64,000 nt of DNA from Candidatus Omnitrophota bacterium (lineage in GTDB: Bacteria > Omnitrophota > Gorgyraeia > Gygaellales > Profunditerraquicolaceae), in the NCBI GenBank assembly GCA_018897555.1, contig JAHIKK010000112.1, positions 12,275-76,274 on the forward strand, given 5' to 3'. Below, piece by piece: positions 33,672 to 61,598 of this stretch; the stretch's first letter is position 1, and every line of letters starts with the position of its first letter. The notes under the pieces were generated by a model. That model made no database searches. It had not been told where the DNA came from and was given only the letters and a program-made list of their open reading frames with translations. The position numbers were made by a program, and so were the translations under genes.

Positions 33672-33680
33672 ACTAAAGTA

Positions 33681-36510: not shown

Positions 36511-37292
36511 TTATCCATTCCTTTTTTGGCCAAAACTGCGCGTTGGATATTATTATAATCCTTAATTATTTTTATATCACTGAAATTTTTCTCTTCCAGC
36601 ATCACTCTCACCGCTTTAGCCTGCCCGGACCCTACCTCAAAAGCCAATAAACCGTTATTGCGCAAATGAACTGTTGACCGGCTGATTATCGAACGATAAA
36701 AATCCAAACCATCAATACCTGCCGCCAGGGCCAGAACCGGCTCAAAAGATATCTCTTTAGCCAAACCCGCCAACTCTCCCGCGGATATATAAGGAGGATT
36801 ACTGATAATTAAATCAAATTTTTTATTTTTAAGCCCGCTAAAAAGATCCATGCGTAAAAATTTAACCTCTACTTTATTTAAACGGGCATTCTCGCCTGCC
36901 AGCTGCAAAGCCTCATCCGATATATCGATAGCCCAAACAAATGCCCGGGGCAATAGCTTAGCGATGGATACGGCAATACAGCCTGAACCTGTGCCCAGAT
37001 CAAGAATCTCGGGAGACACTTTATCCTCTGCCTTTAATTCTGCTATAGCCGACTCAACTAAAATCTCTGTTTCCGGGCGGGGAATCAACGCACGCTGATC
37101 AACCTTAAACTCCAAGCCCATGAATTCGCATGATCCTAAAATATACTGCAACGGCTCACCCATTATCCTGCGCTTTAATATCCGGGATACTTGGGCGGAT
37201 TTATCTCTATCTAAACGCGCCTCTTTATTCAGATATAAAGATAGCCGGCCGCAATTTAAAACATGGCTATAAACTAACTCCGCTTCATTCAT
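36498..37292 (-). CDS. prmC: Release factor glutamine methyltransferase
   Basis: NPPY motif (IISNPPYI) and SAM-binding [10 protein letters not shown]. Confidence 0.85.
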
Positions 37293-38358
37293 TCTTTTTC
37301 TCTGATTCTGCTTTTAATAAAGCCTCAAAAAGCTCATCCATCTGCCCCTCTAAAACCGCCTCTAATTGATGCGCGGTAAAATTAATCCGGTGGTCCGTAA
37401 CCCGGCGGTCCGGAAAATTATAAGTCCGGATCTTTTCGCTGCGGTCTCCGGTGCCAATCTGGGTTTTTCTGGCGCTGGATAATCTTTTTGCCTCCTCCTC
37501 GACTTTTACCTCTAAGATCCGGGCGCGTAAAACTCTCATCGCCTTGGCTCTATTCTTGATCTGTGAACGCTCATCCTGGCAAGCAACTACCGTGCCGGTA
37601 GGAAGATGGGTAATCCTTACGGCTGAATCCGTCTTCTGCATATGCTGGCCACCCGGGCCGCTGGAGCGATAAGTATCAATCCTTAAATCTTTTGGTTCGA
37701 TAACTAAATCGATCTCTTCCGGCTCCACCAATACTGCCACCGTAGCCGTAGAAGTATGAATCCGGCCTTGCGCCTCAGTCGTAGGAACCCGCTGCACGCG
37801 ATGCACGCCGCTTTCGAATTTCAAACAACGAAAAGAATCCTTGCCCTTTACGCTAAAAACTATCTCTTTAATTCCGCCGGCTTCGTTAATACTGGAGTAC
37901 ATCGGTTCAATTACCCAGCCTTTATAATCAGCATATTTGGAATACATCCGATAGAGTACCGCCGCAAAAAGCCCTGCCTCATCCCCTCCGGTGCCCTGCC
38001 GGATTTCAACAATGCAATTACGGCCGGCGTCTTTATCTTCACCGGCCAGGATTTTTTTTAATTCCGATTCTGTATCTGTTTTTTTGGCTTGCAGGTTTTT
38101 AAGTTCTTCCTGCGCCAACTCCAGAAAATCCTGTTCATGCTTTCCGGATAACACACCCTCTAAGTCACTTATCTCTTTAAGCAAATTTTTGTAGCCGCGG
38201 AATATAGAAACTACGTCTTTGATATCAGAAAGCTCTTTGGCCAGTTTATTATATTGCTGGCGGTCAACAATCTGTTCGTGGCTGCCTAAAAGATACTCCA
38301 GCTCCTGATAACGCGCAGTTAGTTTCTCTAACTGCTCATACATTTTATTTTTTACCAT
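37285..38358 (-). CDS. prfA: Peptide chain release factor 1
   Basis: GGQ motif ([23 protein letters not shown]) and RF-1 PxT-type domain; precedes prmC. Confidence 0.95.
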
Positions 38359-38545
38359 ATTTCTTGATGAATTTATCCACGCGGCCGGCAGAATCCACTA
38401 ACTTTTGTTTTCCGGTAAAAAATGGATGGCATTTTGAACAAATCTCAACCCGGATACTGGGCTTCGTTGACCTGGTGTGCACCGTCTCACCGCAAGCGCA
38501 AACAATGGTACTCTCTTTGTAATTGGGATGAACCTTATCTTTCAT
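38345..38545 (-). CDS. rpmE: 50S ribosomal protein L31
   Basis: 66 aa, HPNYK...CxCG...[11 protein letters not shown]31 signature. Confidence 0.9.
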
Positions 38546-38560
38546 TTCTTTTCTCCTTTT

Positions 38561-39820
38561 TTATTTCTGATTCATACTGTTTAAGAACTCTTCGTTATTC
38601 TTTGTCTTTCCCAGCTTTTCAATCAATAACTCCATCGCCTCCACATTATTTAACTCATTTAAAACTTTGCGTAATATCCAGGTTTTTGACAACACATCCG
38701 GTTTGACCAGGAGTTCCTCATGGCGGGTATTGGAACGCTTAATATCAATAGCCGGATAAATCCTGCGCTGAAAGAGATTACGATCCAGCTGGATTTCCAT
38801 ATTCCCCGTTCCTTTAAACTCTTCGAAGATAACTTCATCCATCCGGCTTCCCGTATCGACTAAAGCCGTAGCAATAATGGTCAAGCTTCCGCCTTCATCT
38901 ACCGCGCGCGCCGCCCCAAAGAATCTCTTGGGTTTCTGCAGGGCATTAGAATCAATACCTCCGGAAAGAACCTTGCCGCTATGCGGAACCACGGAGTTAT
39001 AGGCCCGGGCTAAACGCGTGATGCTGTCTAAAAGGACGACCACATCGCGTTTATGTTCCACCAGGCGCTTGGCCTTCTCTAAAACTATCTCGGCAACCTG
39101 CACGTGGCGTTCCGGCGGCTCATCAAAGGTAGATGAGATTACTTCACCTTTAACATTACGCTGCATATCCGTAACTTCTTCCGGCCGCTCATCGATCAAC
39201 AGGACAATTAGAATTACATCCGGATTATTACTGGTAATGGCATTAGCGATCTTCTGCAAAAGAACAGTTTTACCGCTATAGGGCTGAGCAACAATCAGGC
39301 CGCGCTGGCCTTTACCGATGGGAGTAAGCAACCCCATGATGCGCATAGATAACTCATCCGGTTTAGTCTCCATATTAAACGGCTCACGCGGATAAACCGG
39401 AGTAAGATTGTCAAAAAGCACCTTTTCTTTTACCTCCTCGGGATTCTCAAAATTCACCGCCTCCACCTTAAGTAAAGCAAAATATTTTTCTCCTTCCTTA
39501 GGCGGACGGATCTGGCCGCTGACCGTATCCCCCGTGCGCAATTCAAATTTCCTGATCTGCGACGGAGAGATATAAATATCATCCGGGCAGGGAAGATAAT
39601 TATAATTCGGGCTGCGCAGGAAACCAAATCCTTCAGAAAGGATCTCCAGCACCCCTTCCCCGAACATCAACCCTTCCTTTTCCGCCTGAGCCTGAAGTAT
39701 TTTAAAAATCAGATCCTGCTTTTTTAAACCGCTGGTACCGCTGGCATTTAAATCTTTAGCCAGCTTATTCAACTCACCAATCTTCATCTCTTTAAGATTT
39801 TTAATATCTAACTTTTCCAC
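38561..39820 (-). CDS. rho: Transcription termination factor Rho
   Basis: N-terminal domain, CSD RNA-binding, RecA-like ATPase (GKTVLLQ). Confidence 0.95.
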
Positions 39821-40416
39821 AACTGCCTCCGTATTTTAGAAACTTGTTTCTGGGTTTTGGTTACCTGGCCGCTATTATCTATGATAAAATCCGCAAAGCG
39901 CGATTTTGCTTTTTGCGAAATCTGGGATTTCATTCTCAAAACTACCTGTTTTTTTGCCAACCCTAAACTCTTCTGGCTGCGTAAAATCTGCTGCTGCCTA
40001 CTGGCAGTTACTACAATCAACTTATCCACCATCCGGGTTAATCCTGCCTCAATAATTAAAGCCGCATCCAGAACGATAATTCTCTTTTTTGTTTTACGGA
40101 TACGCCGCTTGATCTGCCGGATTAACTCCGGATGCACAATACTATTCAGCTTAGTTAAAGCGGTTTTGTCGGTAAAAACAATTTTTGCTAATTTTTCCCG
40201 GTCAATGGAATTATCCGGCTTAAGGATTCCCCGGCCGAACGATTTTATGATCTTCCTATAAACTCCGGTGCCGCTTAAGATAAGCTCATGCCCCAGGCAA
40301 TCCGCATCAATCAACAGGCAATCTTTATCCTTAAACATACCGGCTACCGTGCTTTTACCGCAGCCGATACAGCCGGTAACCCCTAAAATAAATTTATTTT
40401 TTCTTGGCTTTGCCAT
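39808..40416 (-). CDS. coaE: Dephospho-CoA kinase
   Basis: [14 protein letters not shown]-loop; start trimmed to MAKPRKN. Confidence 0.8.
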
Positions 40417-41782
40417 ATAACTGGATATATTTATCCGCCGAGACCTTCCAGGAAAAATTACATTCCATGGCATACTTGATCAAAGATCGCCATTTATTTT
40501 TATCTTTAAATACCAGCGTGGCTTTTTTAATTAATTTTAGCAATTCTTCTTTGGTGTATTGGCTAAAAATAAAACCATTATTCCTGCTGATGGTATCCGC
40601 CAAGCCGCCGGTTTTAAAAACCAACGGGATTGTTCCGTAATGTAAACTAATTAATTGCCCCAATCCACAGGGCTCATATTGAGACGGCATCAGGAAAATA
40701 TCGCTGCCGGCGTAAATCTTATGCGCCAGGGGATCATCAAATTTTAAATTTAATGAAATAACTTTTGGATATTTCAGGGCGGCGGACTTAAGAATTTTTT
40801 GATACTTCAGGTCTCCGGCTCCCAAAATAACTAATTGCACATCCAGCTTACAAAGATCATCTAAGGCTTCGGCAAAAATATCCAGGCCCTTCTGCTCGGC
40901 CAGGCGGGAAACCATTCCTAAAACGGGAATATCCTTATTCAGCGCTAGGCCGCATATTTTCTGTAAATCCTCTTTATTCAAGGCTTTATCTTCCGGGTTG
41001 GCTAGAGAAAAATTCTGCGCGATAAATCTGTCCGTATTCGGATCCCAAACAGAATAATCCACCCCATTTAAAATGCCGCTTAAAACCTCCTTACGCTGCC
41101 TTAAGAGCCCATCTAAACCAAATCCCAGCTTTTCGGTCTGAATCTCCTGAGCATAAGTGGGGCTAACCGTGTTGATAAAATCCGTAAACACCATTCCCCC
41201 TTTTAACAGGTTAACCTTATTGAAAAATTCAAAACCATCAATATCAAAAAGCTCCCAACCCAGGCCCAGCTTGGGAAATTCTTCTTTAGCGAAAATCCCC
41301 TGATAACCGATATTATGCAGAGTGAGAACGCAGCGCATCCGGCTATAAAAACTCATCTTTGCATACAAGTTCTTCAAATACCCCGCCACCAGGCTCGCCT
41401 CCCAGTCATGTAAATGCAAAATATCCGCGGGAAAATCTATCTCTTTTAATAAATCCAGCGCCCGGCGGCAGAAAAAAGCAAACCGCTCTAAATTATCCGG
41501 ATAATCACCGTTTTTATCCCCATACAGCCCATCACGGTTAAAATAAGCCTTATTTTCAATAAAGTAGACTTTAATATTTTTACCCATAACGCAAGTGGTT
41601 ACATCCTGGGCCACCCGGCTAATTTTAAACTTCGCCTCCGTAATACATTTATAACCGGGCATGATCACAATTATTTCATGCCCGCAATACTCCAAAGCTA
41701 AAGGCAAAGCTCCCGTCACATCCGCCAGCCCTCCGGTCTTAGCAAAAGGCACAACCTCCGAAGCCACCATCGCTATCTTCAT
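40394..41782 (-). CDS. glgA: Glycogen synthase (ADP-glucose type)
   Basis: KIAMVASEVVPFAKTGGLADV N-terminal signature; start trimmed to MKIAMV. Confidence 0.85.
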   Translation of the reverse strand: MKIAMVASEVVPFAKTGGLADVTGALPLALEYCGHEIIVIMPGYKCITEAKFKISRVAQDVTTCVMGKNIKVYFIENKAYFNRDGLYGDKNGDYPDNLERFAFFCRRALDLLKEIDFPADILHLHDWEASLVAGYLKNLYAKMSFYSRMRCVLTLHNIGYQGIFAKEEFPKLGLGWELFDIDGFEFFNKVNLLKGGMVFTDFINTVSPTYAQEIQTEKLGFGLDGLLRQRKEVLSGILNGVDYSVWDPNTDRFIAQNFSLANPEDKALNKEDLQKICGLALNKDIPVLGMVSRLAEQKGLDIFAEALDDLCKLDVQLVILGAGDLKYQKILKSAALKYPKVISLNLKFDDPLAHKIYAGSDIFLMPSQYEPCGLGQLISLHYGTIPLVFKTGGLADTISRNNGFIFSQYTKEELLKLIKKATLVFKDKNKWRSLIKYAMECNFSWKVSADKYIQLYGKAKKK

Positions 41783-44343
41783 TAAAGCACCTCTTCCCCT
41801 TCTGAAAATACGGACATCTTCAGCCAATTGGCTCCTGTTTTCATATCTACTTTTATCGGCACGCCTAATTTCATGACATTCTCCATTCGATCTTTAACTA
41901 ACCCCGTAAGTATATTTAATTCGGAAATCGGCAGGTCAAAAACCAATTCATCATGAATCTGTAAAATCATCTTGGCGGCTAAGCCCTTGTCTTTAATTTG
42001 CGCGGATATCTTAATCATTGCCAGCTTAATTAAATCGCTGGCTGTTCCCTGGATAGGGGTATTTACAGCTTGACGCTCAGCAAACTGCCGGATCCCCATG
42101 TTTTTATTATTAATTTCAGGGATATACCTTCTTCTTCCCAAAAGCGTGGTAACGAATCCTTCGCTTTTAGCCTTTTTTATCTGGGCATCAATATATTCTT
42201 TCACTTTAGGATAACGTAAAAAATAAGCATCGATAAAATCCTGCGCTTGATTGACCGGGATATCCAGATCCTTGCTCAAGCCATACGCGCTCTGGCCATA
42301 AATAATACCGAAATTTACTCTTTTGGCTACCTCGCGCATCGAGGATTCAACTTTTGATTCGGGGAGATTATAAATTAAAGAAGCCGTCAACCGGTGCACA
42401 TCCTGATCGCGGCTAAAGGCCTCAATCAGCGTAGGATCACCACAAAGATGCGCCAACACCCTTAATTCTATTTGTGAATAATCACAGGAAAGCAGGCAAT
42501 TCTTTTCACCGGAAGCAATAATCGCCTGCCTGATCTTACTGCCGATATCCGTCTTAATCGGTATATTCTGTAAATTAGGATTACTGGAACTTAACCTGCC
42601 TGTTTCGGTACCGGCCTGATTAAAAGAGGTATGCACCCTGCCGCTAGAAGGGTCTACTAGTTTAGGCAGAGCGTCGACATAAGTATTTTTTAATTTGGTC
42701 AACTGCCGATACTCCAGCAATAGAGCGGGTAAAGCATGTTTATCGCTTAAGCGCTTTAACACCTCTTCATCCGTAGAGGGCCCGGTTTTAGTTTTTTTAA
42801 TTACCGGAAGGCCCAACTTAACAAACAAAACCTCCCCCAGCTGTTTTGGCGAGTTGATGTTAAATTGCGTTCCACTTGCCTCATAAATATCCGAAATTAA
42901 CTTAATTAACCTGCGCTCAATATCAACGGAAAGATTTTTAAGCAACTCTAAATCCAACTTTATCCCGTCTTGCTCCATCTCTGCCAGAATGCTTACCAAG
43001 GGCATCTCCAGATCAAAGAAAAGCCTGGATAAATCTTTTTCTTCTAAGGCCTGCAAAAGAGGCGGCTTTAATCTGATGACCAAAGCCAATGCCTCTTTGG
43101 CTTCCAAAGACCCCTGGCGGATAAATTCACCTAAATTTTCCAACGCCAAGTCCTCCAGCGCATAACTTGTTCGCGATGGATTTAACAGATACGCGGCGAT
43201 CATAACATCAAAATCCAAGCCGTTTAAAATCAAGCCTTCCCTAAAAAGAGCGACTTTTAGTTTCTTAAGATCATGGCCTGTCTTCTTGATCCGAGGATCA
43301 GAAATTGCCAGGCGCAGGCCTGCTGCCTGGGCAAGCTTACCGCTAAAGAATTTATCATCGATGGCAAAAAATAGATCCTCAGCGCTTGATCCGTAAATGG
43401 CAATTTCATCGCAATGTTTAAGCATGGCGGTTAACTCCGCCTGATTACAGCTGCACAGGCTGGTTGGCGCGATTTTATCCGCCGCATCCGGAAGTTCACC
43501 GAGCAGCTTTTTAAACTCCAACTTCTTAAAAATGCCGGCGAGGCGGGAGTAATCCGGCTGTCCGGTTTTAGCCTTTTCTAAATCCAAATCTAAATCCAGC
43601 TCTTGATCCAGGCTGATCAACTCCCTATTTAATTTTATGCGCTGGCTATTGCTCTGGATCATTTCTTTAATTTTTTGAGGCTTTACTTTTGAAATATTCT
43701 TCAACAGCTTATCTAAAGAACCAAATTCTAAGATCAGTTTTTGGGCAGTTTTATCTCCAATCCCCGGAACCCCCGGGATATTATCCGCAGTATCGCCCAT
43801 CAGCGCGATAATATCTACCAGCCGCTCCGGAGCAACCCCGAAACGCTCCTTTACTTTAGCCAGGTCATAAAACACTCCGCTGTCTTTATTCGGGCTAAAT
43901 ACCGAAATACGTTTACCCACTAATTGCAGGATATCTTTATCGCTACTCACAATGGTCACCGCCAATGACCGCGAGGCGGCATCTTTGGCCAACTGAGCGA
44001 TGAGATCATCGGCTTCAAAACCTTCTTTTTCAAAAATAGGAATTCCGTAGGCTGCCACCACCTCTTTGATCAGAGGAATCTGGCTAATCAGGCTATCCGG
44101 CATTGCCGCCCGGTGCATCTTATATTGCGCGAATTTCTTCAGGCGGAAAGTGTTCCGCGATAAATCAAAACAGCAAACCAGATAATCCGGCTTCTGCTCT
44201 TTTAATACTTTATTCAGAATATTTATAAATCCATAAACCGCGTTTGTCTTCTGGCCGCTGGATGTGCTCAACTCCTTTAAGGCATAAAATGCCCGATAAC
44301 AAAATGCAGTGGCATCAATTAAGATTAAACTTTTTTCAGCCAT
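41782..44343 (-). CDS. polA: DNA polymerase I
   Basis: 5'-3' exonuclease N-terminus, polymerase A family motifs (RRxAKxxNFGxxYG, HDEL). Confidence 0.95.
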   Translation of the reverse strand: MAEKSLILIDATAFCYRAFYALKELSTSSGQKTNAVYGFINILNKVLKEQKPDYLVCCFDLSRNTFRLKKFAQYKMHRAAMPDSLISQIPLIKEVVAAYGIPIFEKEGFEADDLIAQLAKDAASRSLAVTIVSSDKDILQLVGKRISVFSPNKDSGVFYDLAKVKERFGVAPERLVDIIALMGDTADNIPGVPGIGDKTAQKLILEFGSLDKLLKNISKVKPQKIKEMIQSNSQRIKLNRELISLDQELDLDLDLEKAKTGQPDYSRLAGIFKKLEFKKLLGELPDAADKIAPTSLCSCNQAELTAMLKHCDEIAIYGSSAEDLFFAIDDKFFSGKLAQAAGLRLAISDPRIKKTGHDLKKLKVALFREGLILNGLDFDVMIAAYLLNPSRTSYALEDLALENLGEFIRQGSLEAKEALALVIRLKPPLLQALEEKDLSRLFFDLEMPLVSILAEMEQDGIKLDLELLKNLSVDIERRLIKLISDIYEASGTQFNINSPKQLGEVLFVKLGLPVIKKTKTGPSTDEEVLKRLSDKHALPALLLEYRQLTKLKNTYVDALPKLVDPSSGRVHTSFNQAGTETGRLSSSNPNLQNIPIKTDIGSKIRQAIIASGEKNCLLSCDYSQIELRVLAHLCGDPTLIEAFSRDQDVHRLTASLIYNLPESKVESSMREVAKRVNFGIIYGQSAYGLSKDLDIPVNQAQDFIDAYFLRYPKVKEYIDAQIKKAKSEGFVTTLLGRRRYIPEINNKNMGIRQFAERQAVNTPIQGTASDLIKLAMIKISAQIKDKGLAAKMILQIHDELVFDLPISELNILTGLVKDRMENVMKLGVPIKVDMKTGANWLKMSVFSEGEEVL

Positions 44344-44527
44344 TAATTAAATATTCAAGGAATTCAATATAAGGAAAGATGTTTTAGTGAGCCCGGCAAA
44401 AAAATAAACAGATAATGTTGCAATTACAGTAATTATGAGTTTAGGCGGGAAGAGATTATTCATTTAGCTGTTAACTATTATATACAATTAGCTGTATCCG
44501 TCAAGTAAAAAGCAAGAAAATTTTCGC

Positions 44528-47092
44528 CTAAATGATCGAATCCATGGTTAATACCGGATGCGCTACCTGTTTTAAAAAAACGAGAAGTTCTTCCAAACTA
44601 GTAGCTACGGATTCATCGGCAATCTTATCCAATAAATCCTCTTGCCCAATCTCCTGGGCCCTGGATTTTAGTTTGTCATGCAAAATTTCCTTTAACTCCT
44701 TGGGCATCCAGACCACTCTGGTTAGGCCGCCTTCAGCTGAAATAAATTTCTTACTTAAAATATATAACTTACCCACCCCCAAGAACCCCGGAGTCTGCAC
44801 CCCGCCGCCAACCAATCCGGCTAAAGTTGTAAAACTCATCCCACAAGGAGTGTTGCCGGAATAATCGCGGTGCACCAGCATTACCCCGTTGGCTTCCGGG
44901 AGAATAGCCACAATGCATTCAAAACATCCGCAGGAAGATTGCGGACTATCCATCAGCGAATACATACTTACCGCACTAATGGTTTGATTAGATTTTTGCT
45001 GGACGAATGCATTTATATTATCCCATTGGCCAAGCCGGGCATCCAGGAGATTACCTTTGAGAATAGGTTGATTGGGGCCGGTAGGGATAATTTCAAAAGA
45101 AGCTTTGGCATCCAGCCAGGAATATGCCCCGCATAAACCTAAGCGCTCCGGAGTAACCACGCAAACATGATTCGGGGCAAAGGATTGGCATAATAAACAG
45201 GAATAAAATGTATCCACGCTCTCATCAGTCATGCCGGCTAAGCGCTCATCGCGTTGATTATAAATTTGCTGTGCCTGGAGTGAAACTCTGGCTACATCCT
45301 CCTGCTGAGTATAAAGCTTAACCTGCACCTTATCCACAATCGCGCTGTACTCCGCATGTAACATCGCATGTAAAATAATCCCCAAATGTTTTAGCCGGAA
45401 ACCTTTACTATAAGCATCCTGGGATATTCTAATCCAGACCCTGTCGCGCTGGCCCATATGCATCAGGCCCATGCCATAATTAATAAAACGATGGATCTGC
45501 CTCTCTAATATTGACTCAAAATCTTTTTGCATTTTACGGCCAAAAACATCTACGACTATCGCCAAAGGTAAAGATTTAGTCCCTGGCGGCAACTGATCAA
45601 TATCCGGGCCAATCAATTCCACGCTACCATCAGTAATACTAACCTCATCACCGGAACTTAAAAACTCAATCGCCGCTCCGGCCTTACCTCCAAACTCCGC
45701 CGCCAATTGCTCCTTAAGCACACGCTCGCCTTCAAAGGCAGCAGCATAAGGCAGGGGAACAGGCACCTGCAACATTTTGACTTTAATCCCACGCGTCAAA
45801 ATACATTTAGAAGGTAATTTTCGATAATCCTTCTCCGTAACTAAGGCCTCAAATAAGGTGGTATCAATTTTACCTAATTGCGGCACATCCAGATCCGTAA
45901 TCACGGGCAGGCCAAAAGCCAGGGCCCCTAAACCTGTGGCCACTGAGAGTTCATCCACCTGGCCAAGCAGAAGGACAAATGCCAAAACACGATTGCGGAT
46001 ATAATCCGCTATCCCTTCCCACTGTCCGGGCTTATTACCACCGTAAATTAAGGGAACGCGGACCGCAAAATTAATCGCGTAAATCGCGGAAAGATAGTCA
46101 TCTCCTAATGCCACGATATAATTTTCTAAACCTAATTCCACCCCCTGATTTTGAAGTTGCTGCTTAAAAGTATTTCCCTTAATGTTGCCCGCCAGAAAAC
46201 TAACAATGCTTTTGGATTGAAAATCACGAATTAATTCCACAGCGGATTGATCATCCTTGGCCGGGCCCAAAATTACCGCAATTCCCGCGATCCTTCCGTC
46301 AACTAATTGCAGACCCAGCGACCGCAAAATCTTATCCGGAATAAAACCCCATCCCTCGGCAGGATGCTCTTGATTTAACACGGCTATGGCGGCTAAAATC
46401 TCCTCGCATATCAAAGTAGCCATACCCTGGTTTAATAAACCCCCTAAACTATTAATGAACAAACCGCTGGAGGCAGCCTGCTGATTAGCCAAAGCCTCTG
46501 CCTGATTAAAAGCCGCTAAACAATCTTGCAGGTTTTTTACCTGGATATTCAACAGGGCATTAATTAAAGGCAGGTAATAATTGGTTTCCGGAAACTCAAT
46601 TTTTACATTCTGGCCTTTTTGGCTGATTGCCCTATCCAGGGATTGACGCGTAAGATTTAATACGGCGAGAGTTCCTTTTGTCCCAAGTTCCGCGAGTAAT
46701 GGAGGCACTTGGCCTGCTTTAACCTGCCTTAAAGAGAGATCCGGCATGGCTTTATCTACAAAGATAACTAAACATACGCCGACGGCTTTGCCGTCTTTGA
46801 ATTTAACCGCTTCGGCTCTGCCCTCGCCGACAATCTCCTGGATCGGGTTAGGCATTACCTGAATATCCGCCGGTAACTGGCCGCTAAAGCTCTGCGTGTT
46901 GATAACCTTAACCGCAACCTTATATTTTTCACAAATTAATTTGGCTAATGGGAATACTACGCCGGTGGGCCCGTCAATGCAGACAGTATCGTTAATCAGA
47001 TAAGCGTCTAGCTTTTTTAAGTCATCTTCGGAGCTGATGAAAACAACGCCCTTTTTTCTTGCGCCGGGTATCTGCGGTAAGTTAAGCGCCAT
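44528..47092 (-). CDS. acsB: CO-methylating acetyl-CoA synthase catalytic subunit (AcsB/CdhC family), long form
   Basis: C-terminal half aligns closely to AcsB including the A-cluster ligand motif TDESVDTFYSCLLCQSFAPNHVCVVTPERLGLCGA ... SSCGCFECIVAILPE; 854 aa with a ~110-aa N-terminal extension. Confidence 0.85.
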   Translation of the reverse strand: MALNLPQIPGARKKGVVFISSEDDLKKLDAYLINDTVCIDGPTGVVFPLAKLICEKYKVAVKVINTQSFSGQLPADIQVMPNPIQEIVGEGRAEAVKFKDGKAVGVCLVIFVDKAMPDLSLRQVKAGQVPPLLAELGTKGTLAVLNLTRQSLDRAISQKGQNVKIEFPETNYYLPLINALLNIQVKNLQDCLAAFNQAEALANQQAASSGLFINSLGGLLNQGMATLICEEILAAIAVLNQEHPAEGWGFIPDKILRSLGLQLVDGRIAGIAVILGPAKDDQSAVELIRDFQSKSIVSFLAGNIKGNTFKQQLQNQGVELGLENYIVALGDDYLSAIYAINFAVRVPLIYGGNKPGQWEGIADYIRNRVLAFVLLLGQVDELSVATGLGALAFGLPVITDLDVPQLGKIDTTLFEALVTEKDYRKLPSKCILTRGIKVKMLQVPVPLPYAAAFEGERVLKEQLAAEFGGKAGAAIEFLSSGDEVSITDGSVELIGPDIDQLPPGTKSLPLAIVVDVFGRKMQKDFESILERQIHRFINYGMGLMHMGQRDRVWIRISQDAYSKGFRLKHLGIILHAMLHAEYSAIVDKVQVKLYTQQEDVARVSLQAQQIYNQRDERLAGMTDESVDTFYSCLLCQSFAPNHVCVVTPERLGLCGAYSWLDAKASFEIIPTGPNQPILKGNLLDARLGQWDNINAFVQQKSNQTISAVSMYSLMDSPQSSCGCFECIVAILPEANGVMLVHRDYSGNTPCGMSFTTLAGLVGGGVQTPGFLGVGKLYILSKKFISAEGGLTRVVWMPKELKEILHDKLKSRAQEIGQEDLLDKIADESVATSLEELLVFLKQVAHPVLTMDSII

Positions 47093-47962
47093 CTATAATC
47101 CACTTGCCTTTAAAACTTCGGGCACAAGCTTATCCCAGCCAATGGGCATAATATGAATTCCCCGGCACAGCGGTTTTAATTGCTTAATTAAACGGCTGGC
47201 AATCTCTATGGAAGTAGCCGCCTTATCTTTACTTTGCTCCATCTCTAAAACCAAATCCTCCGGCACATAAATGCCGGCAACATTTTTATTCATGTAGCGA
47301 GCCATACCTGCGGACTTCAACAAAACAATACCCGCAATAATCGGAACTTTAACCTCTTTGATCTTGGAAATAAAGTTCTCAAAAATTTTTATATCAAAAA
47401 CTGCCTGGGTTTGGAAAAATTCAGCTCCGGCGGCAATTTTTTTCTCCAGCTTCATGATCTGCGGGGCTAACGGGTCTGAGCCGGGATTAACTACCGCGCC
47501 AATACAGAATTTTGGCGGATTACCCTCTAGTTTATTATCCTGCATATCAAAACCGGTTTCTAATTTCCTGGCCACCTGTAATAATTGCACTGAATCTAAA
47601 TCAAAAACCGGCTTGGCCTGCGGATGATCCCCTAAACTAGGATGGTCTCCGGTGGCAATGAGAACATTCTGAATTCCTAAAGCCGCCGCAGAAAGTAAAT
47701 CTGATTGCAGGGCCAGGCGGTTACGGTCGCGGCAGGTGAGCTGATAAATCGGCTCAAAACCCTTCTGCTTAAGCAGAAAGCTCACGGTTAATGACCCCAG
47801 GCGCATTACGGAGCTCTGTAAATCCGTAACATTAATCGCATCGACTTTGTTACGAATAAGCTCAGCATCCTGCAACAACCTCTCAGTATGGATCCCTTTG
47901 TCCGGGCCAACCTCAGAAGTAACCAAAAATTTCCCTGCCTGTATTTTTTCTTTAAAAGTCAT
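47093..47962 (-). CDS. metF: 5,10-methylenetetrahydrofolate reductase
   Basis: MetF TIM-barrel sequence; adjacent to acsB. Confidence 0.85.
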   Translation of the reverse strand: MTFKEKIQAGKFLVTSEVGPDKGIHTERLLQDAELIRNKVDAINVTDLQSSVMRLGSLTVSFLLKQKGFEPIYQLTCRDRNRLALQSDLLSAAALGIQNVLIATGDHPSLGDHPQAKPVFDLDSVQLLQVARKLETGFDMQDNKLEGNPPKFCIGAVVNPGSDPLAPQIMKLEKKIAAGAEFFQTQAVFDIKIFENFISKIKEVKVPIIAGIVLLKSAGMARYMNKNVAGIYVPEDLVLEMEQSKDKAATSIEIASRLIKQLKPLCRGIHIMPIGWDKLVPEVLKASGL

Positions 47963-47977
47963 TTAATTATTTTTCTT

Positions 47978-47998
47978 AACATAATACTACATTATGTT
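47978..47998. promoter_or_regulatory. Perfect inverted repeat aacataat-N5-attatgtt upstream of metF (candidate operator)
   Basis: 8-bp arms, 5-nt spacer, 16-36 nt upstream of the metF start. Confidence 0.3.
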
Positions 47999-48112
47999 AT
48001 ATTTTTATTGCAAGCTGAAGTAATTCAGAGTTACGTATACACGCGAACCCGTTCTCACGAGCGGGTTCTTCGCTTTCTAGAGACTAAATACCATCTCCCA
48101 AAATCGATATAC

Positions 48113-48460
48113 TTAAAATCCCATCGCCTTCCCAAGATTCTTTTGTACCTTCTGGAGGTCTTGCTGTAATAGAGCCCCTAATTTATGAATTATCATGCTA
48201 TCTTTTATTGTTCGCATAATCCCTGTAACCAAAGATGGGTAGATAAGTCCTGTCTCTTCCCATTTATCTATTTTGGTATCACCAAATAACACCCTTTTTA
48301 TATTCCCGGTGATAGCCGCAACGATTACCTCTTGTCGTCCATTATGATAATTATCACTACTTATTATTAAGGCAGGCCTTTTCTTAGATCCGATTCCTTC
48401 GGAAAAACCAAAATCAACGAGAACTATATCTCCCCGTTTATATTTTATCATACGCGGCAT
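48113..48460 (-). CDS. mazF: MazF/PemK-family type II toxin (mRNA interferase)
   Basis: RGDIVLVDFGFSEGIGSKKRPALIIS...GRQEVIVAAITG PemK/MazF signature. Confidence 0.8.
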   Translation of the reverse strand: MPRMIKYKRGDIVLVDFGFSEGIGSKKRPALIISSDNYHNGRQEVIVAAITGNIKRVLFGDTKIDKWEETGLIYPSLVTGIMRTIKDSMIIHKLGALLQQDLQKVQKNLGKAMGF

Positions 48461-48689
48461 CCTTTTCGTTATTCCATAATTCCTTTAAAATAGGATCTTG
48501 CTTTAAATTCATAGTTAAAGCTGATAATTCTTTCTCTTCTCCTTCTTGACGTAAACGCTCCAGCACGCTTTCCACGACATATTCCCGGATTGTTTCACCA
48601 TGAAGAGCCGCGTAGGCTTTTATTCTCCTATGCTCTTCAGGGAGCACATCAATGCTTAATCTCTCTCGCGCCATCTCTGCTTTCGCCAT
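48438..48689 (-). CDS. Ribbon-helix-helix antitoxin partner of MazF
   Basis: MAKAEMARERLSIDVLPEEHRRIKAYAALHGETIREYVVESVLERL RHH fold; overlaps toxin start by 23 nt; start trimmed from the longer track ORF. Confidence 0.65.
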   Translation of the reverse strand: MAKAEMARERLSIDVLPEEHRRIKAYAALHGETIREYVVESVLERLRQEGEEKELSALTMNLKQDPILKELWNNEKDAAYDKI

Positions 48690-48855
48690 ATTTAACACCC
48701 CCCTGGTATAAATATACACTATTTCAGTAAATGTGTCAAGACACAAATGTTGATTAATTAATCCTGCTGCTTTGACTAAAACGCCATTCACTCGAAGACT
48801 GCCAGATTCATTCTAAAACCTAGAAACATTTCTATAAGATAAGTATCGTGTCCCC

Positions 48856-48871
48856 AGAATTGCGCAATTCT
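48856..48871. promoter_or_regulatory. Perfect 16-bp palindrome agaattgcgcaattct
   Basis: Zero-spacer palindrome overlapping the stop codon of the 163-aa membrane protein gene, upstream of the TA promoter region. Confidence 0.25.
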
Positions 48872-49361
48872 ACCTACCAATAACTGTTCTATAAAATAAC
48901 ATATAACTAATAATAATATACGACGCAGTATTTGCTATCCAAACTGCTCGTTTTATCTTTATCTTATCTATTGGCTTAAAATATTTTTTCACTATAAAAT
49001 ATTCAATAAATACAGTTAAAAAATAAAGTACGACTAATTCTGGTATATAAATAACCCAATTATTTAATCCTGATCTCCATATAAATGCTTTAACAAAAAA
49101 AATGGGTACGCCAACTAATGTTGAGATAAAATTTGCAACAATCGATGGAAAAAAGGTTTCTTTAAACCTAATTTTTAATACCCATTTATATATAAAAGCC
49201 TCTAATAGCATTACAAAGACTAAAACTTGTAACATCAATAATGGAATATCAAGTAACACTACAGGAATTCCCGCATCTGCGTAAGCAACAGAGGTAATCA
49301 AAGTAAAACAAAAAAATATAAATATTATTTTATTTTTAACAAGATTTTTATAACTATCCAT
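48870..49361 (-). CDS. Hypothetical multi-pass membrane protein, very AT-rich
   Basis: 163 aa, signal/TM segments; local GC far below neighbours. Confidence 0.45.
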   Translation of the reverse strand: MDSYKNLVKNKIIFIFFCFTLITSVAYADAGIPVVLLDIPLLMLQVLVFVMLLEAFIYKWVLKIRFKETFFPSIVANFISTLVGVPIFFVKAFIWRSGLNNWVIYIPELVVLYFLTVFIEYFIVKKYFKPIDKIKIKRAVWIANTASYIIISYMLFYRTVIGR

Positions 49362-49397
49362 TCTCTCCTCTTAGTTAAGATTTTCGGCTTTTGCTGG

Positions 49398-49527
49398 AGG
49401 CACAGTTAGAAGATTTTCGGCAATAGTGTGCAAGGAATTACGTCGAGCGTAGGCTGTGTCCTTTTAGCGTAAGGAACATAGCCGGAGCGAGACGTAAGCC
49501 GCAGCACACGGCGAAAATCTTCGTGCC
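49398..49527. repeat. ~130-nt GC-rich imperfect palindromic element (MITE-like or structured RNA)
   Basis: Arms ggcac..gaagattttcggcaatagtgtgc and gcagcacacggcgaaaatcttc..gtgcc pair over ~25 bp; plus direct repeat of aagattttcggc at 49375 and 49409. Confidence 0.35.
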
Positions 49528-49557
49528 GGAAGCAAGAGCCGGAAATCGCAAGTACAT

Positions 49558-50355
49558 CTATTGCTGCGCGACAGCTGCCTCGACCAGGTTGCGCATAAGA
49601 ATAGCTACGGTCAAGGGGCCAACTCCTCCGGGTACAGGAGTAATGTAGCTGGCCTTTTTTTCCGCTGCTTCAAATTCCACATCTCCGACAATCTTATCGC
49701 CTACGCGGTTAATCCCGACATCAATGACCACCGCACCCTCCTTAATCCATTCCCCCTTAATTAATCCGGCTTTGCCTACGGCCACAATCAAAACTTCAGC
49801 GTGCCGGACATGCTCTTCTAACTTGCCCGCCTTGCTTGTGCCAATATGACAAACAGTAACCGTAGCCAATTTATCCAACAACAAAAATACCAAAGGTTTA
49901 CCCACTGTTTCGCTATGGCCCACCACCACCACTTCCTTGCCATATAAATCCACGCCGCTAGTTTTAATTAATTCCATCACCGCGGCCGCCACCGGAGAAT
50001 TCACCCCTTCAATATCTTTATTCCGCAAAATAAACCGGCGAATCGACTCACCATCTATTTGTTTAGGTAAAGGCATCTGAATGCTAATGCCATGCACATG
50101 CTTATCGTTGTTTAATTTCTGAATGAGTTCAACTACCTGGCTTTCAGTTGCCTCTTCAGGCAAAACGCGCAAACAATATTCAATCCCAAGTTCACCGGCT
50201 AACCTCTGCTGTGACTTTGCGTAACTCATTGCCCCGGGATTTTCACCGATCAGAATACTGGCTAAAACCGGAGGCTGTTTTAAACCGCGCACAGTGAGGC
50301 GTAATTCTTCCTTTATTTTTTCAGCGATAGGCTTACCCTCTAATAACTTTGCCAA
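49558..50355 (-). CDS. folD: Bifunctional 5,10-methylene-THF dehydrogenase / 5,10-methenyl-THF cyclohydrolase
   Basis: FolD signature (GHSETVGKPL, PVPGGVGP). Confidence 0.9.
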   Translation of the reverse strand: MAKLLEGKPIAEKIKEELRLTVRGLKQPPVLASILIGENPGAMSYAKSQQRLAGELGIEYCLRVLPEEATESQVVELIQKLNNDKHVHGISIQMPLPKQIDGESIRRFILRNKDIEGVNSPVAAAVMELIKTSGVDLYGKEVVVVGHSETVGKPLVFLLLDKLATVTVCHIGTSKAGKLEEHVRHAEVLIVAVGKAGLIKGEWIKEGAVVIDVGINRVGDKIVGDVEFEAAEKKASYITPVPGGVGPLTVAILMRNLVEAAVAQQ

Positions 50356-50896
50356 CTTTTTCCTCCATTTTGGCCCTGGCCTGCTTAACGAACTTAGCTT
50401 TCAACCCTAATTCTTTATTGATCACGCCCGTCAGTTTTTTATCATTGAGTATTTTTAAATTGATATCCACATTAAGACGGGCAGAGCAAAATGCCGACTC
50501 TAAAAATATTGCCGCTATGGCCATATCGCTGATTAAATTTACGTTTGTTTTTTTAATTAAAGGCGCCAGCATCTTTAACCCTTCGCAACAAAACCTGGCC
50601 AGCATTAAAGGCACATCCATTGCTTTCCGGGAATCCTTGCTCTTATATGCCAGAATATCTAAATCCACCAAATTTAAGAAATCATCTTTTAATTTATCTG
50701 ATTTTTTTAAAATCGTTTTGAGTTCTTTCTCATATTTAGAATATTTGGGCTTGCCCAAAGTGAAATTAATCACCATGCTCAGGAGGCTGGCACCCATAGC
50801 CGCATTCATTGCCGCGGCAGATCCGCCGCCGGGAGCAGGAAGCTTGGCGGAAAGGTCATTTAAGTATTTAGTTAAGCTTTGAGTTTTATATTCCAT
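50333..50896 (-). CDS. fchA: Methenyltetrahydrofolate cyclohydrolase / formiminotransferase-cyclodeaminase-family protein (FchA-like)
   Basis: LPAPGGGSAAAMNAAMGASLLSMV cyclodeaminase-domain motif; coupled to folD. Confidence 0.7.
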   Translation of the reverse strand: MEYKTQSLTKYLNDLSAKLPAPGGGSAAAMNAAMGASLLSMVINFTLGKPKYSKYEKELKTILKKSDKLKDDFLNLVDLDILAYKSKDSRKAMDVPLMLARFCCEGLKMLAPLIKKTNVNLISDMAIAAIFLESAFCSARLNVDINLKILNDKKLTGVINKELGLKAKFVKQARAKMEEKVGKVIRG

Positions 50897-50900
50897 GGTT

Positions 50901-51281
50901 TTACAGTGTAAAGTTTGCGTTTAATTCAAAAGCATCTTTAATTAAAGATATCTTCGGCAGATTATCCAAATACAGAAGCGACAACACATCAAAACGCGCT
51001 GAACGCTCCAGGAGATTATTGCTCTTCAAATAATAAATAGCGGCTTTGGAGATCTGCCTCTGTTTCCTGGCAAAAACCGCTTCTTCAGGAACCCCGAAAT
51101 TAGAGGAATGCCTGGCCTTAACCTCCACAAAACAAATAGTGCCCTTATCTTCTGCAATTATATCCACTTCGCCAAATTTAGTTCGATAATTACGCTGGAG
51201 AATCTTATAACCCTTAGTTTTTAGAAACTCCACTGCTGTTTTTTCTGCTTGCTTGCCAAACTCTATCCTTGTTTCAGGCAC
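50901..51281 (-). CDS. yraN: YraN-family (UPF0102) endonuclease
   Basis: GEVDIIA...CFVEVK motif; conserved rnhB-yraN neighbourhood. Confidence 0.8.
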   Translation of the reverse strand: MPETRIEFGKQAEKTAVEFLKTKGYKILQRNYRTKFGEVDIIAEDKGTICFVEVKARHSSNFGVPEEAVFARKQRQISKAAIYYLKSNNLLERSARFDVLSLLYLDNLPKISLIKDAFELNANFTL

Positions 51282-51877
51282 TTTAAAAAACTCTTTCTGT
51301 GAATAGCCGCAGGCCCAATTTGTCTTAAGATCTCCCGATGCCTTTGCGTGGGATAACCTTTATGCTGAATAAAACCGTATTGCGGATAAATTTTATGATA
51401 CGCATCCATAATCTGATCTCGCCGTACTTTAGCCAGTATGGATGCGGCGGCGATACTCAAAGATTTGCCATCCCCCTGAACAATACTCTGATAAGGCAGA
51501 TCCAGCTTAAGGCGCATATTTCCGTCAATAAGTACAAATACGCGTTCTAATTCTTGGGGTTTAAGCTGCTTGGTCAATTTAGAGATTGCCTTTTGCATGG
51601 CTAAGATTGTCGCTTGCAAAATATTAATCTGATCAATCTTAATATGGTTAACGGCGGCAATGGCATATAAAGATTTACTTTTTATTTCAAAAAACGCGTC
51701 TTTTCTTTGCGCCGGAGTTAATTTTTTAGAATCATCTATCCGATGAATAAATCGAAAATCCTTTAACCACACTGCCGCCGCTACTACCGGCCCGGCTAAA
51801 GGCCCTCGGCCTGCTTCATCCACGCCGATAATATAATCAAAACCCTTAAGCTTAAGCTTTCTTTCGTAGCAGAGCAC
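51263..51877 (-). CDS. rnhB: Ribonuclease HII
   Basis: GVDEAGRGPLAGPVV catalytic motif. Confidence 0.9.
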   Translation of the reverse strand: MLCYERKLKLKGFDYIIGVDEAGRGPLAGPVVAAAVWLKDFRFIHRIDDSKKLTPAQRKDAFFEIKSKSLYAIAAVNHIKIDQINILQATILAMQKAISKLTKQLKPQELERVFVLIDGNMRLKLDLPYQSIVQGDGKSLSIAAASILAKVRRDQIMDAYHKIYPQYGFIQHKGYPTQRHREILRQIGPAAIHRKSFLKCLKQG

Positions 51878-52234
51878 TTACTTAACTTTTTCTTCTTTGC
51901 TTTCTATTTTAGTGGCATGTTTGCCAATCTTCCCTCTTAAATAGTAAAGCTTAGCCCTTCTAACCTTACCAAAACGGATAATCTCAATGCGGTCAATAAC
52001 CGGAGAATAAAGCGGAAACACCCGCTCCACCCCCTCACCGGAAGAAACTTTCCTCACGGTAAAATTAATTTTGCTGCCTGATCCACTCTTCGCAATCACC
52101 ACACCCTCAAAAGGATGCAGGCGGAATTTATCCGGGCCTTCGGGAATTCTGGTAAGCACCTTAACCGTGTCTCCGACATTAATCGCCGGCATCTCTTTCT
52201 TAGTAAACCCTGCCTCAATTGATTTAATATCCAT
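51878..52234 (-). CDS. rplS: 50S ribosomal protein L19
   Basis: 118 aa, L19 signature (FKVGDTVKV..., RRAKLYYLR). Confidence 0.9.
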   Translation of the reverse strand: MDIKSIEAGFTKKEMPAINVGDTVKVLTRIPEGPDKFRLHPFEGVVIAKSGSGSKINFTVRKVSSGEGVERVFPLYSPVIDRIEIIRFGKVRRAKLYYLRGKIGKHATKIESKEEKVK

Positions 52235-52249
52235 TACTGTTGCTCCTTT

Positions 52250-54039
<1,790 letters not shown>

Positions 54040-54075
54040 TTATAATGAACTGTGGTGAAACTCATACGCGTCTGT

Positions 54076-54218
54076 CTTGTCTTGTTCCTCCGCGCACCGC
54101 TTGAGCCGCCCCAGCGTGGCGGCTCTACGCTCGAGCAGAATCTTGCGCTCCCCGCCAAGAATCGTGGCGGGACCGTGCCCGCGCAAGATTCTTAACGTGC
54201 GCTCCGGAACAAGCCAAG
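54076..54218. repeat. ~145-nt GC-rich rod-like palindromic element (MITE-like or 6S-like structured RNA)
   Basis: Closing arms cttgtcttgttcctccgcgcac / gtgcgctccggaacaagccaag (about 19 of 22 positions complementary) enclosing nested hairpins gagccgcc-N7-ggcggctc, agaatcttgcgc...gcgcaagattct, cccgcca-N7-tggcggg; the 60-aa track ORF inside (54040-54222) is probably not coding. Confidence 0.4.
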
Positions 54219-54310
54219 CCATCCGCTAAATCAAGAGTGTCCCCTTTTAAAACGTCCCCCGATTCCATACTGTTCTCCGCCAAAGCAACTATTAATTATT
54301 TTTATCGATC

Positions 54311-55102
54311 TTATTTAATTCTAGAAAAATCAATCGGTATCCGTTTCTCCTCGTTTTCATAAATAACCACAATTTCATACTTTGACGATAAATTAATATC
54401 ACTGTAATTGTATAAATGGCTAGGTTTCTGCACTGATAAACCGACAACGTCACTGCTATCTATCTTCAAATCTTTGCGATATTGTTCAGCGATCTTGTTT
54501 GCCATCTCCATTGTTTGCTTCACGACAGCATTAGCGGTTTCCTGCCAGTTGTTCTGGACACCCAACAGATGAGAGTAAGAATATGGGCTTTTGTCATTGT
54601 ATAATGGGTTCGATTCAGCTTCTTGAACTTTGATGCCATCTTTGAGCAAAACAAAATTTACTTTACTCTGAAATGCATATAATCCAGCGCCAACTGGGTT
54701 AACCTGCTCTACTGTCTCAATGTGAAATGTCGGCAGCGTTGCAAGAAAGTTAACGTAGTCCATATCTATTGCTTCATAATTCTTTGTTTGCTTGGCTGCG
54801 TAATCAGCAATCAAATAATAATTAGAGCAAATCAATATGTAGACTTGACGTATACCACCCAAGAAATTAGTAATGTTTTTTGAGTATATGAAAGCGTAAT
54901 TGATAACATCTGGCTTTAATCTGTTCTTCTTACCAAAGTCAATAGCTTCCTGTATCTGCTCTGGCGATAAACGAGCGATTAAGCCATTCTTATAATTCTT
55001 TAACGTTGCAGGACGCTGGCCTCTAATATATGTTTCCCTCATAGAAAAACCGCAGCCACTTACAAAAATGCTCAAGGTCACAATAAAAATAAGTCTCCTC
55101 AT
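54311..55102 (-). CDS. Hypothetical lipoprotein
   Basis: Signal peptide with lipobox VSGC; 263 aa, no recognised family. Confidence 0.45.
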   Translation of the reverse strand: MRRLIFIVTLSIFVSGCGFSMRETYIRGQRPATLKNYKNGLIARLSPEQIQEAIDFGKKNRLKPDVINYAFIYSKNITNFLGGIRQVYILICSNYYLIADYAAKQTKNYEAIDMDYVNFLATLPTFHIETVEQVNPVGAGLYAFQSKVNFVLLKDGIKVQEAESNPLYNDKSPYSYSHLLGVQNNWQETANAVVKQTMEMANKIAEQYRKDLKIDSSDVVGLSVQKPSHLYNYSDINLSSKYEIVVIYENEEKRIPIDFSRIK

Positions 55103-55260
55103 TTCTCCCTCTCTACAATTTAGTAGACCTCATTTAACACAGAATGAGGTTAGAATACCTTGCTCTACGCAAAAACTATAATAAAAAATTATCATTCTTG
55201 TAAATCTAAGTTCTGAAAACTTTTCTCCAAGTATCATAATTCCCAATTTTCCTCTTCTGA

Positions 55261-55327
55261 AAATAAAGAGACCGTTTCTATTTTTCTTGGGCCCGATTCT
55301 AGTAAAATAGAAACGGTCCCTTTATTC
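55261..55327. repeat. Inverted pair of the 'aaaatagaaacggtccc' repeat family forming a ~17-bp hairpin; probable bidirectional terminator
   Basis: aaataaagagaccgtttctatttt-[19-nt loop]-aaaatagaaacggtccctttattc; on the minus strand followed by a T-rich tract; sits 3' of the PH-domain protein gene. Confidence 0.6.
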
Positions 55328-55334
55328 ATTACTA

Positions 55335-55874: not shown

Positions 55875-55940
55875 TTCATATTCTCCTTTCTTAAATAATA
55901 TTAGAAAACCTCGCTCTACACCAATTAAATGTACTGCTTA

Positions 55941-56027
55941 GCGGGTGGCTTGGGTGTTTTCGACGCGCGTCAGCGCTAGAAAATACCCAAGACAGCCTGC
56001 CCGCCAATCTTTATGGCGGGGACCCGC
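55941..56027. other. GC-rich structured element B (gcgggtggc...ggcggggacccgc), related to element A; contains a cccgcc-aatctttat-ggcggg hairpin
   Basis: Same gcgggtgRc / gRcRgg(g)acccgc closing motif as 23589-23655; nested 13-bp stem cttgggtgttttc/gaaaatacccaag around palindrome gacgcgcgtc; lies in the queA 3' UTR and upstream of the PH-protein gene. Confidence 0.35.
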
Positions 56028-57019: not shown

Positions 57020-57030
57020 ATTTAAAACTA

Positions 57031-58798: not shown

Positions 58799-58805
58799 AA
58801 CTTTA

Positions 58806-61574: not shown

Positions 61575-61598
61575 ATCTTAGTCCGATATAGCTGTAAG

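Follow-up and report, generated by a model that had tools for sequence, protein, structure and literature searches.

In the complexes that carbon monoxide dehydrogenase forms with acetyl-CoA synthase (CODH/ACS), the N-terminal domain of the synthase subunit, AcsB, contacts CODH. Dehalococcoides mccartyi is said, in work by Zhuang et al. from 2014, to have an incomplete Wood-Ljungdahl pathway in which acetyl-CoA is cleaved for C1 supply, and it reportedly lacks metF and has kept fhs and acsCD next to acsB. We describe here an AcsB that likewise stands without CODH at its locus, encoded on contig JAHIKK010000112.1 of a Candidatus Omnitrophota bacterium, of which a stretch of 64,000 nucleotides (the window) was analysed. 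The gene (44528..47092, minus strand) is a single open reading frame (ORF) of 854 aa, delimited from the ORF list, Pfam, a structure match and NCBIfam, in which a relic domain of an FAD-NAD(P) oxidoreductase (FNOR), a linker and AcsB follow one another. Use of the enzyme in reverse to feed the folate pool is plausible here as in D. mccartyi; unlike that organism, the window has metF, and has it adjacent to acsB, fhs is gone from its ancestral slot, and acsCD are not in view.

Sets of AcsB-E genes without AcsA/CooS have been reported in Velamenicoccaceae, Profunditerraquicolaceae and related families (Seymour et al. 2023, PMC10066038). The truncated carbonyl branch of the Velamenicoccus archaeovorus type (PMC10066038), with AcsB and without AcsA/CooS, comes from the same phylum and probably the same family as the window, whose closest named relative in our set (L011) is Amyimicrobium silvilacustre of the Profunditerraquicolaceae. 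The AcsB is ordinary in itself, and that paper already documents AcsB without CODH for this family. The paper is a survey of presence and absence, and the sections of it considered here contain no account of an extended AcsB, an FNOR relic or a stepwise decay of the locus. Work on Ni-CODHs has also described a CooS-CooF-FNOR module (Whitham 2015, Geelhoed 2016, Inoue 2019, PMC6344411), with no biochemical study of its FNOR as of 2019 (PMC6344411). The N-terminal extension of the window protein shares homology with the middle, NAD(P)-binding domain of the FNOR that syntenic cooS-cooF-FNOR-acsB clusters of relatives encode, but the window lacks the FAD segments, Rubredoxin_C, cooS and cooF, its NAD motif is degenerate, and the domain is fused to AcsB. 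The gene is a fusion confined to one clade, in which a pseudoenzyme relic precedes AcsB, and the CODH module is gone from the Wood-Ljungdahl locus where it lies. On the conservation described below, its product is probably a catalytically competent bacterial acetyl-CoA synthase that carries a non-catalytic, FNOR-derived N-terminus.

By every sequence-level feature tested, the protein is an AcsB. Pfam places CODH_A_N at residues 150-236, CdhC at 445-600 and ACS_CODH_B_C at 611-854, and with 958 bits the protein clears the cut-off of 800 set for the NCBIfam AcsB equivalog (NF040764), residues 139-854 covering model positions 2-705. The top match among solved structures is the ACS of C. hydrogenoformans (1ru3, E 2.6e-201; query 124-853 against chain 15-731). 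The three-domain architecture is complete, including the N-terminal domain that is absent from archaeal CdhC. This domain spans approximately residues 136-440 (45773..46687, minus strand; limits from CODH_A_N and the ACS structure alignment), the middle domain approximately residues 441-610 (45263..45772, minus strand), and the C-terminal A-cluster domain residues 611-854 plus the stop codon (44528..45262, minus strand). The [4Fe-4S] ligand motif C632-x2-C635-x8-C644-x9-C654 lies at 45131..45199 on the minus strand, with the spacing of Cys506, 509, 518 and 528 of Moorella ACS. The nickel-binding motif of the A-cluster, Cys721-Gly-Cys723 (44924..44932, minus strand), aligns with the ACS structures. 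A sequence-only reading of this DNA had proposed a long-form AcsB with intact A-cluster ligands and an extra N-terminus, located between polA and metF, and the 854-aa ORF, its three Pfam domains, its cysteines and its two neighbours (metF upstream at 47093..47962, polA downstream at 41782..44343) bear this out. The three domains, the A-cluster ligands and a full-length sequence match are common to it and to the synthases of M. thermoacetica and C. hydrogenoformans, from which it differs by about 135 additional N-terminal residues (relic plus linker). Like the monomeric ACS of C. hydrogenoformans, the window AcsB could act without bound CODH. The ratio of nonsynonymous to synonymous substitution rates (dN/dS, Nei-Gojobori on codon alignments) for the AcsB domain is 0.03-0.11 in the closest pairs (N-terminal domain 0.03-0.11, middle 0.04-0.06, C-terminal 0.04-0.05). 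In the closest species representative (L060:4421-7034, 82% AcsB identity), acsB is recovered in two overlapping tblastn pieces (4856-5566 and 5520-7034), and this frameshift may be an assembly error or mark a pseudogene.

The extension comprises about 115 residues and a linker of about 20 residues ahead of the AcsB part, and an identical 854-aa ORF product is found on four independent contigs. The stop codon of metF (TAG) directly abuts the ATG of the fused ORF. From this Met1 (47090..47092) the frame is open up to the AcsB part, and since it contains no stop codon, initiation at Met1 necessarily gives the fusion. By simple arithmetic, an in-frame open stretch of 115 codons would arise by chance with a probability of about 0.001 at 43% GC. 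The NCBI annotation of the identical gene is inconsistent, with 854 aa in one assembly (MCG2708523.1, GCA_022013145.1), where the window lies on contig JAKLQW010000107.1, and 739 aa in four sister metagenome-assembled genomes (MBU4252878.1 and others). The 739-aa calls begin at Met116 (46745..46747) and leave the conserved relic domain unannotated. One could hold that the shorter calls are right and the fusion an annotation artefact, the real AcsB being 739 aa from Met116 with the upstream 345 nt outside the protein; the NCBI pipeline picked this start in four assemblies of the same species, 739 aa is the canonical AcsB length, and Met116 sits within a partly conserved DKAM motif. We regard this as very unlikely, because any start at Met1 yields the fusion, the upstream part is under protein-level purifying selection, with a dN/dS of 0.07-0.15 and change biased to third positions, and is predicted to fold as a Rossmann domain, and the frame has been held in 16 other species despite insertions and deletions in the linker. 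The calculated pairing with the anti-Shine-Dalgarno (SD) sequence is -6.1 kcal/mol before Met1 (window median -3.2), against +0.4 before Met116, where SD-like pairing is absent. The ancestral start Met of AcsB is itself gone in the window, where the sequence reads ...GQVPPLLAELGTKG compared with ...GEDMADLLIQLGTKG in many relatives. The mis-called start that the sequence-only reading had named as its own possible undoing thus fails as an explanation, and the extension is genuinely coding.

Residues 1-133 match no Pfam or NCBIfam family. Homologues of the first 125 residues (E 1e-48 to 1e-27) all come from Omnitrophota; some are ORFs of their own (112-143 aa), others run on into the N-terminus of AcsB. 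A profile of the extension, searched against 1.8 billion representative sequences, matches Pyr_redox_2 proteins of two sizes (~300 and ~420 aa) over their residues ~111-230, and also a protein of 1024 aa (P0031) in which a flavoprotein-like sequence of ~300 aa is fused to AcsB. When full-length FNOR genes in syntenic positions are compared by tblastn, the homologous segment falls exactly between FAD-N segment and acsB. The predicted fold of the extension is Rossmann with good model confidence, as for an NAD(P)-binding subdomain. We conclude that the extension (residues 1-115, 46748..47092, minus strand) is the NAD(P)-binding Rossmann subdomain of an FNOR that ancestrally preceded acsB; residues 116-135, which include Met116, form a variable linker (46688..46747, minus strand) in which the ancestral AcsB start Met has been lost. 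The sequence-only reading had suggested that the N-terminus could be a novel docking domain, and on the point of novelty the profile search, synteny, fold and alignment all say otherwise. Two other identities were considered and rejected. A thioredoxin-reductase-like NADPH domain, as read by eye, gives way to an FNOR of the NADH-oxidase/rubredoxin-reductase type in both synteny and alignments. MetV, the small Fe-S/zinc-ribbon partner of MetF in acetogens, does not agree with the lack of a family match in residues 1-133, the Rossmann fold and the absence of a Cys-rich motif.

Full-length FNORs of these loci carry the cofactor motifs GNSAAG (FAD), GGGLIGL (NAD) and AGD, and forms of ~290 aa lack the NAD and GD motifs. 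In the window the decay has gone further. Both FAD segments are absent, the ORF opening at the boundary of the NAD domain and continuing into AcsB, and where the full-length syntenic FNORs read LGGGLIGL the relic reads VCIDGPTGVV, with G41 as the sole conserved glycine and a near-invariant proline in place of another glycine of the GxGxxG motif. The extension has several invariant lysines and only three cysteines, one of them near-invariant. The protein lacks the cofactor features that define an FNOR, keeps only the fold, and should not be filed as an oxidoreductase. A synthase that operates without CODH requires some reductant for its activation. The extension might on that account still be a working module that binds NAD(P)H or another nucleotide, perhaps to deliver or gate electrons when the A-cluster is reductively activated, and the Rossmann fold that the model retains and the invariant lysines would suit such a role. 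We judge it highly improbable: of the GxGxxG motif only G41 survives, a proline having replaced another position, the whole FAD domain is gone and with it the sole redox cofactor site of the parent enzyme, and the domain lacks any cysteine motif that could hold a metal centre.

The origin of the relic can be followed at the locus itself. A scan for AcsB in one genome per species, in a collection that does not include the species of the window, gave 80 loci, nearly all of them from Omnitrophota, with a best match of 82% to the window AcsB. Mapping the window proteins onto these loci revealed a conserved backbone, fchA-folD-metF-[X]-acsB-(TPR)-polA, in which the content of [X] varies. In a large group, [X] consists of a Prismane/CooS protein of 635 aa, a CooF-like protein of 145 aa with two [4Fe-4S] clusters and a Pyr_redox_2/Rubredoxin_C protein of 421 aa (Pfam annotation of L042, and tblastn). 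The full order at the site corresponding to that of the window, as seen in L111, is rnhB-UPF0102-fhs-fchA-folD-...-metF-cooC-cooS-cooF-FNOR-acsB-polA-glgA-coaE-rho, and two more distant loci (L090 and L098) carry a superoperon, fhs-fchA-folD-metF-(cooC)-cooS-cooF-FNOR-acsB-acsC-RACo-cooC-acsD-acsE. In a second state, cooS and cooF have been lost and an FNOR of ~290 aa without Rubredoxin_C directly follows metF. In the third state, that of the window's group, the middle domain of ~112 aa alone remains. A neighbour-joining tree of AcsB unites all loci of the second and third states in one clade beside the cooS-bearing loci, and since the outgroups carry the full cooS-cooF-FNOR-acsB module, the direction of change is loss. 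The comparison establishes (fhs)-fchA-folD-metF-(cooC)-cooS-cooF-FNOR-acsB-polA as the ancestral order, and the disappearance of fhs, cooC, cooS, cooF and both FAD segments of FNOR from this site in the window lineage. The relic domains are 52-80% similar to each other, compared with 30-43% to the ~290-aa forms, which suggests a single origin of the 112-aa state.

In the three complete clusters whose ORF coordinates were compared (L042:8734-12172, L040:9668-13103 and L114:3048-6552), the end of the FNOR gene and the beginning of acsB share 8 nt, a translational coupling from which an in-frame fusion by a small insertion or deletion would be easy. Three other relatives have a stand-alone relic ORF of 131-132 aa (in L110 within 717-4687, L108:6250-6645 and L005:10001-10399), whose tail, ...ELLMQLGLKGAES, corresponds to the first ~15 residues of AcsB. 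This ORF is followed by fhs-cooC-cooS in L110 and by a moeA-mobA-nuoE-nuoF-fdhA block in L005 and L108. L114:754-6552, from the same sample as L108, carries cooC-cooS-FNOR(443 aa)-acsB-TPR-polA of the cooS-bearing clade. These arrangements suggest that an already decayed locus in the L108/L110/L114 lineage regained a complete module, by re-insertion or by recombination.

The fusion is stable across species. Sixteen other species-level genomes keep the relic in frame with acsB, at AcsB identities to the window as low as 64%, and among the 17 fused genes the linker varies in length by up to ~30 residues while the frame is never broken. In the two least-diverged pairs, dN/dS of the relic domain is 0.07 and 0.14, similar to AcsB, and that of the linker is 0.3-0.9, with an amino-acid identity of 23%. 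Values are 0.08-0.16 for the dead FNOR of ~290 aa and 0.11-0.16 for the unfused 131-aa relic ORFs. The low dN/dS of the extension indicates a selected protein domain and not an untranslated spacer. The substitution patterns show that the relic, though it has lost its dinucleotide-binding glycine motif, is maintained under purifying selection in no fewer than 17 species-level genomes. The gene directly preceding acsB is always FNOR, and at least two forms of it have become fused to AcsB: one of ~300 aa (L024, L069 and P0031) and, in the clade of the window, one of 112 aa. As is usually argued from gene fusions, such repeated events point to a physical contact between FNOR and AcsB that outlived catalysis. 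The general concept of the pseudoenzyme scaffold likewise involves an enzyme fold that lacks its cofactor motifs and is held by purifying selection; in our case the scaffold role is putative.

The surroundings of the gene were annotated with Pfam on every ORF of at least 150 aa and with tblastn, for which CooS, CooF, CooC, FNOR, AcsC, RACo, AcsD, AcsE and FTHFS from complete clusters served as seeds. Neither method found cooS/acsA, cooF, cooC, acsC, RACo, acsD, acsE or fhs in the window, in agreement with the absence of acsA, acsC/D and acsE within 64 kb that the sequence-only reading had noted. The contig continues for 7.5 kb past the window end with housekeeping genes only and none of the genes just listed. 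In contrast to ordinary ACS loci, then, genes for CODH, the corrinoid Fe-S protein and the methyltransferase are all missing within ~72 kb, and with no Prismane/CooS homologue in the window and these 7.5 kb the gene does not belong to a bifunctional AcsA-AcsB system at this locus. The other Wood-Ljungdahl genes in the window are folD and fchA only, beside metF. The description of this AcsB as an orphan holds at the locus (64 kb plus 7.5 kb), and its reach is that of the locus. Beyond the contig, no AcsC of this species was among the best 120 of thousands of homologues of an Omnitrophota AcsC query, and no CooS with the accession series of the species (MCG27..., MBU4252...) was among the closest homologues of a relative's CooS, both of which are weak negatives; 20 homologue clusters and three candidate contigs inspected for acsC or cooS of the species all belonged to other organisms.

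With fhs, cooC, cooS and cooF all gone from the locus, the AcsB might be the leftover of a decaying pathway or a redundant copy, with a complete CODH/ACS operon elsewhere or with the synthase unused. Some close relatives do hold a relic ORF plus a complete cooC-cooS-FNOR-acsB cluster of the cooS-bearing type nearby or in the same sample, and other relatives have no acsB within 10 kb. We nevertheless find this reading quite unlikely, because the AcsB is intact, with all its ligands and under purifying selection as strong as that on any neighbouring gene, and because its site is the orthologous and not a secondary one; the weak negative for a CooS or AcsC of the species among the closest homologues also counts against it. 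The copy is not a paralogue, since it sits between rnhB-UPF0102-fchA-folD-metF and polA-glgA-coaE-rho exactly as the acsB of the complete clusters does. The ancestral fhs slot, at the junction of UPF0102 and fchA (50896..50901), is empty in the window, as it is in the majority of its closest relatives, and fhs is present between the two genes in L111, L017, L022 and many other relatives.

If the gene encodes a competent synthase with a relic N-terminus, its translation would start at the ATG abutting the metF stop and would be translationally coupled to metF, and the AcsB part would work as an ACS independent of CODH, alongside a corrinoid Fe-S protein and a methyltransferase encoded elsewhere. 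Such a mode has been proposed for the AcsB-E sets of the Omnitrophota families named above (PMC10066038). In one direction, acetyl-CoA would be made from a methyl-corrinoid, free CO and CoA; in the other, acetyl-CoA would be cleaved and its methyl groups passed into the folate pool via MetF, FolD and FchA. The latter, which the sequence-only reading had suggested as a route of acetyl-CoA cleavage and C1 supply, would fit the apparent loss of fhs and CODH, an absence seen at the locus. As for the relic, the ancestral complex probably had FNOR docked on AcsB, a contact on which AcsB (or MetF) may have stayed dependent after catalysis was lost. The most economical reading would then be a non-catalytic structural adaptor, a putative scaffold for AcsB or possibly for MetF. 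On a broader and more tentative view, which we put forward as possible but rather doubtful, the repeated fusion to AcsB of FNOR, be it full, truncated or cut down to its NAD domain, would mean that CooS, CooF, FNOR and AcsB form a four-part machine with FNOR as a physical subunit, and that its contact domain was exapted in the CODH-less Omnitrophota. If true, NAD(P)H would be coupled by this machine directly to the reduction of CO2 and the synthesis of acetyl-CoA in the many bacteria that bear the operon, and the contact domain would be an obligatory non-catalytic subunit of a free-standing ACS or an ACS-MetF bridge. It would also show, in steps that can be traced, how an enzyme was pared down to a pseudoenzyme scaffold.

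The position of the relic next to metF calls for a different assignment to be weighed, namely that it is now an accessory subunit of MetF (a stabiliser or a link to a redox partner) and that the fusion to AcsB was incidental to the deletion of cooS-cooF. In every truncated or relic locus the gene for the domain starts at, or within a few nt of, the metF stop; where acsB is no longer adjacent, a separate ORF of 131 aa persists after metF under the constraint given above (dN/dS 0.11-0.16); and no MetV-like partner stands beside this metF. Adjacency to metF, however, follows automatically from deletion of cooC-cooS-cooF, the ancestral FNOR was coupled by the 8-nt stop/start overlap to acsB and not to metF, and three separate types of fusion all join the domain to AcsB and none to MetF. 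A role for the relic as a MetF subunit therefore seems unlikely to us. Several observations do weigh against the picture of a competent synthase with a relic adaptor for AcsB that arose by stepwise decay. Internal initiation at Met116 may add a short-form AcsB to the long one. The neighbour-joining tree gives no clean order from the ~290-aa to the 112-aa form within the truncated and relic clade. The relic is under selection also as a separate ORF unfused to AcsB (L007, L005, L108 and L110), so that a covalent link is not strictly required for its function, which could have to do with MetF. Finally, the activity of AcsB in this organism would be a deduction from its conservation, and partner acsC/D/E genes were not found in the window or among the homologues inspected.

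No description of an FNOR-AcsB fusion, of the extended AcsB, of its origin or of the decay series was found in open-access papers and bioRxiv preprints. What appears to be new is the identification of where the extra domain comes from, the succession of states at one site (full module, dead FNOR of ~290 aa, 112-aa relic fused to AcsB), and the retention of the relic by selection after the loss of every cofactor motif. The fusions also give a testable lead on the FNOR that accompanies many Ni-CODHs, as they predict binding to AcsB via the NAD domain. The annotation inconsistency between sister metagenome-assembled genomes (854 versus 739 aa for the same gene) is corrected here. A caution follows for surveys that score AcsB as present in these nanobacteria, in which a modified enzyme is counted whose partners and direction are putative.

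Among the neighbouring genes, polA (41782..44343, minus strand) is the conserved downstream neighbour that marks the orthologous site, and upstream lie metF (47093..47962, minus strand), which codes for a methylene-tetrahydrofolate reductase of 289 aa, folD (49558..50355, minus strand), fchA, which codes for a cyclohydrolase-type FTCD_C protein (50333..50896, minus strand), and the UPF0102 gene (50901..51281). The MetF is divergent, passing Pfam MTHFR and falling far below the cut-off of every NCBIfam MTHFR equivalog (e.g., TIGR00676: 79.5 versus 293.7 bits). The interval between folD and metF holds a MazF/PemK toxin (48113..48460), a ParD-like antitoxin (48438..48791) and a multi-pass membrane ORF of 163 aa without a family (48870..49361); folD and metF are adjacent or nearly so in most close relatives (e.g., L005, L010-L014), and the segment looks like an insertion that split the methyl-branch operon. 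According to Seymour et al. (PMC10066038), the V. archaeovorus-type pathway lacks formate dehydrogenase. Beside the relic in L005 (12367-18512) and L108 (8661-14645), we observed genes for a NuoE-like protein, a NuoF-like/Pyr_redox_2 fusion of 1003 aa and a NuoG-like/molybdopterin formate dehydrogenase of 904 aa, together with molybdenum-cofactor genes, a block that is possibly an NAD(P)H- or ferredoxin-linked formate dehydrogenase. Across the window (1..64000), all annotated genes lie on the minus strand except that for ribosomal protein L28, only a handful of ORFs of at least 150 aa run otherwise, and the GC skew is negative in every 2-kb bin, so that the window is a 64-kb block transcribed almost wholly one way.

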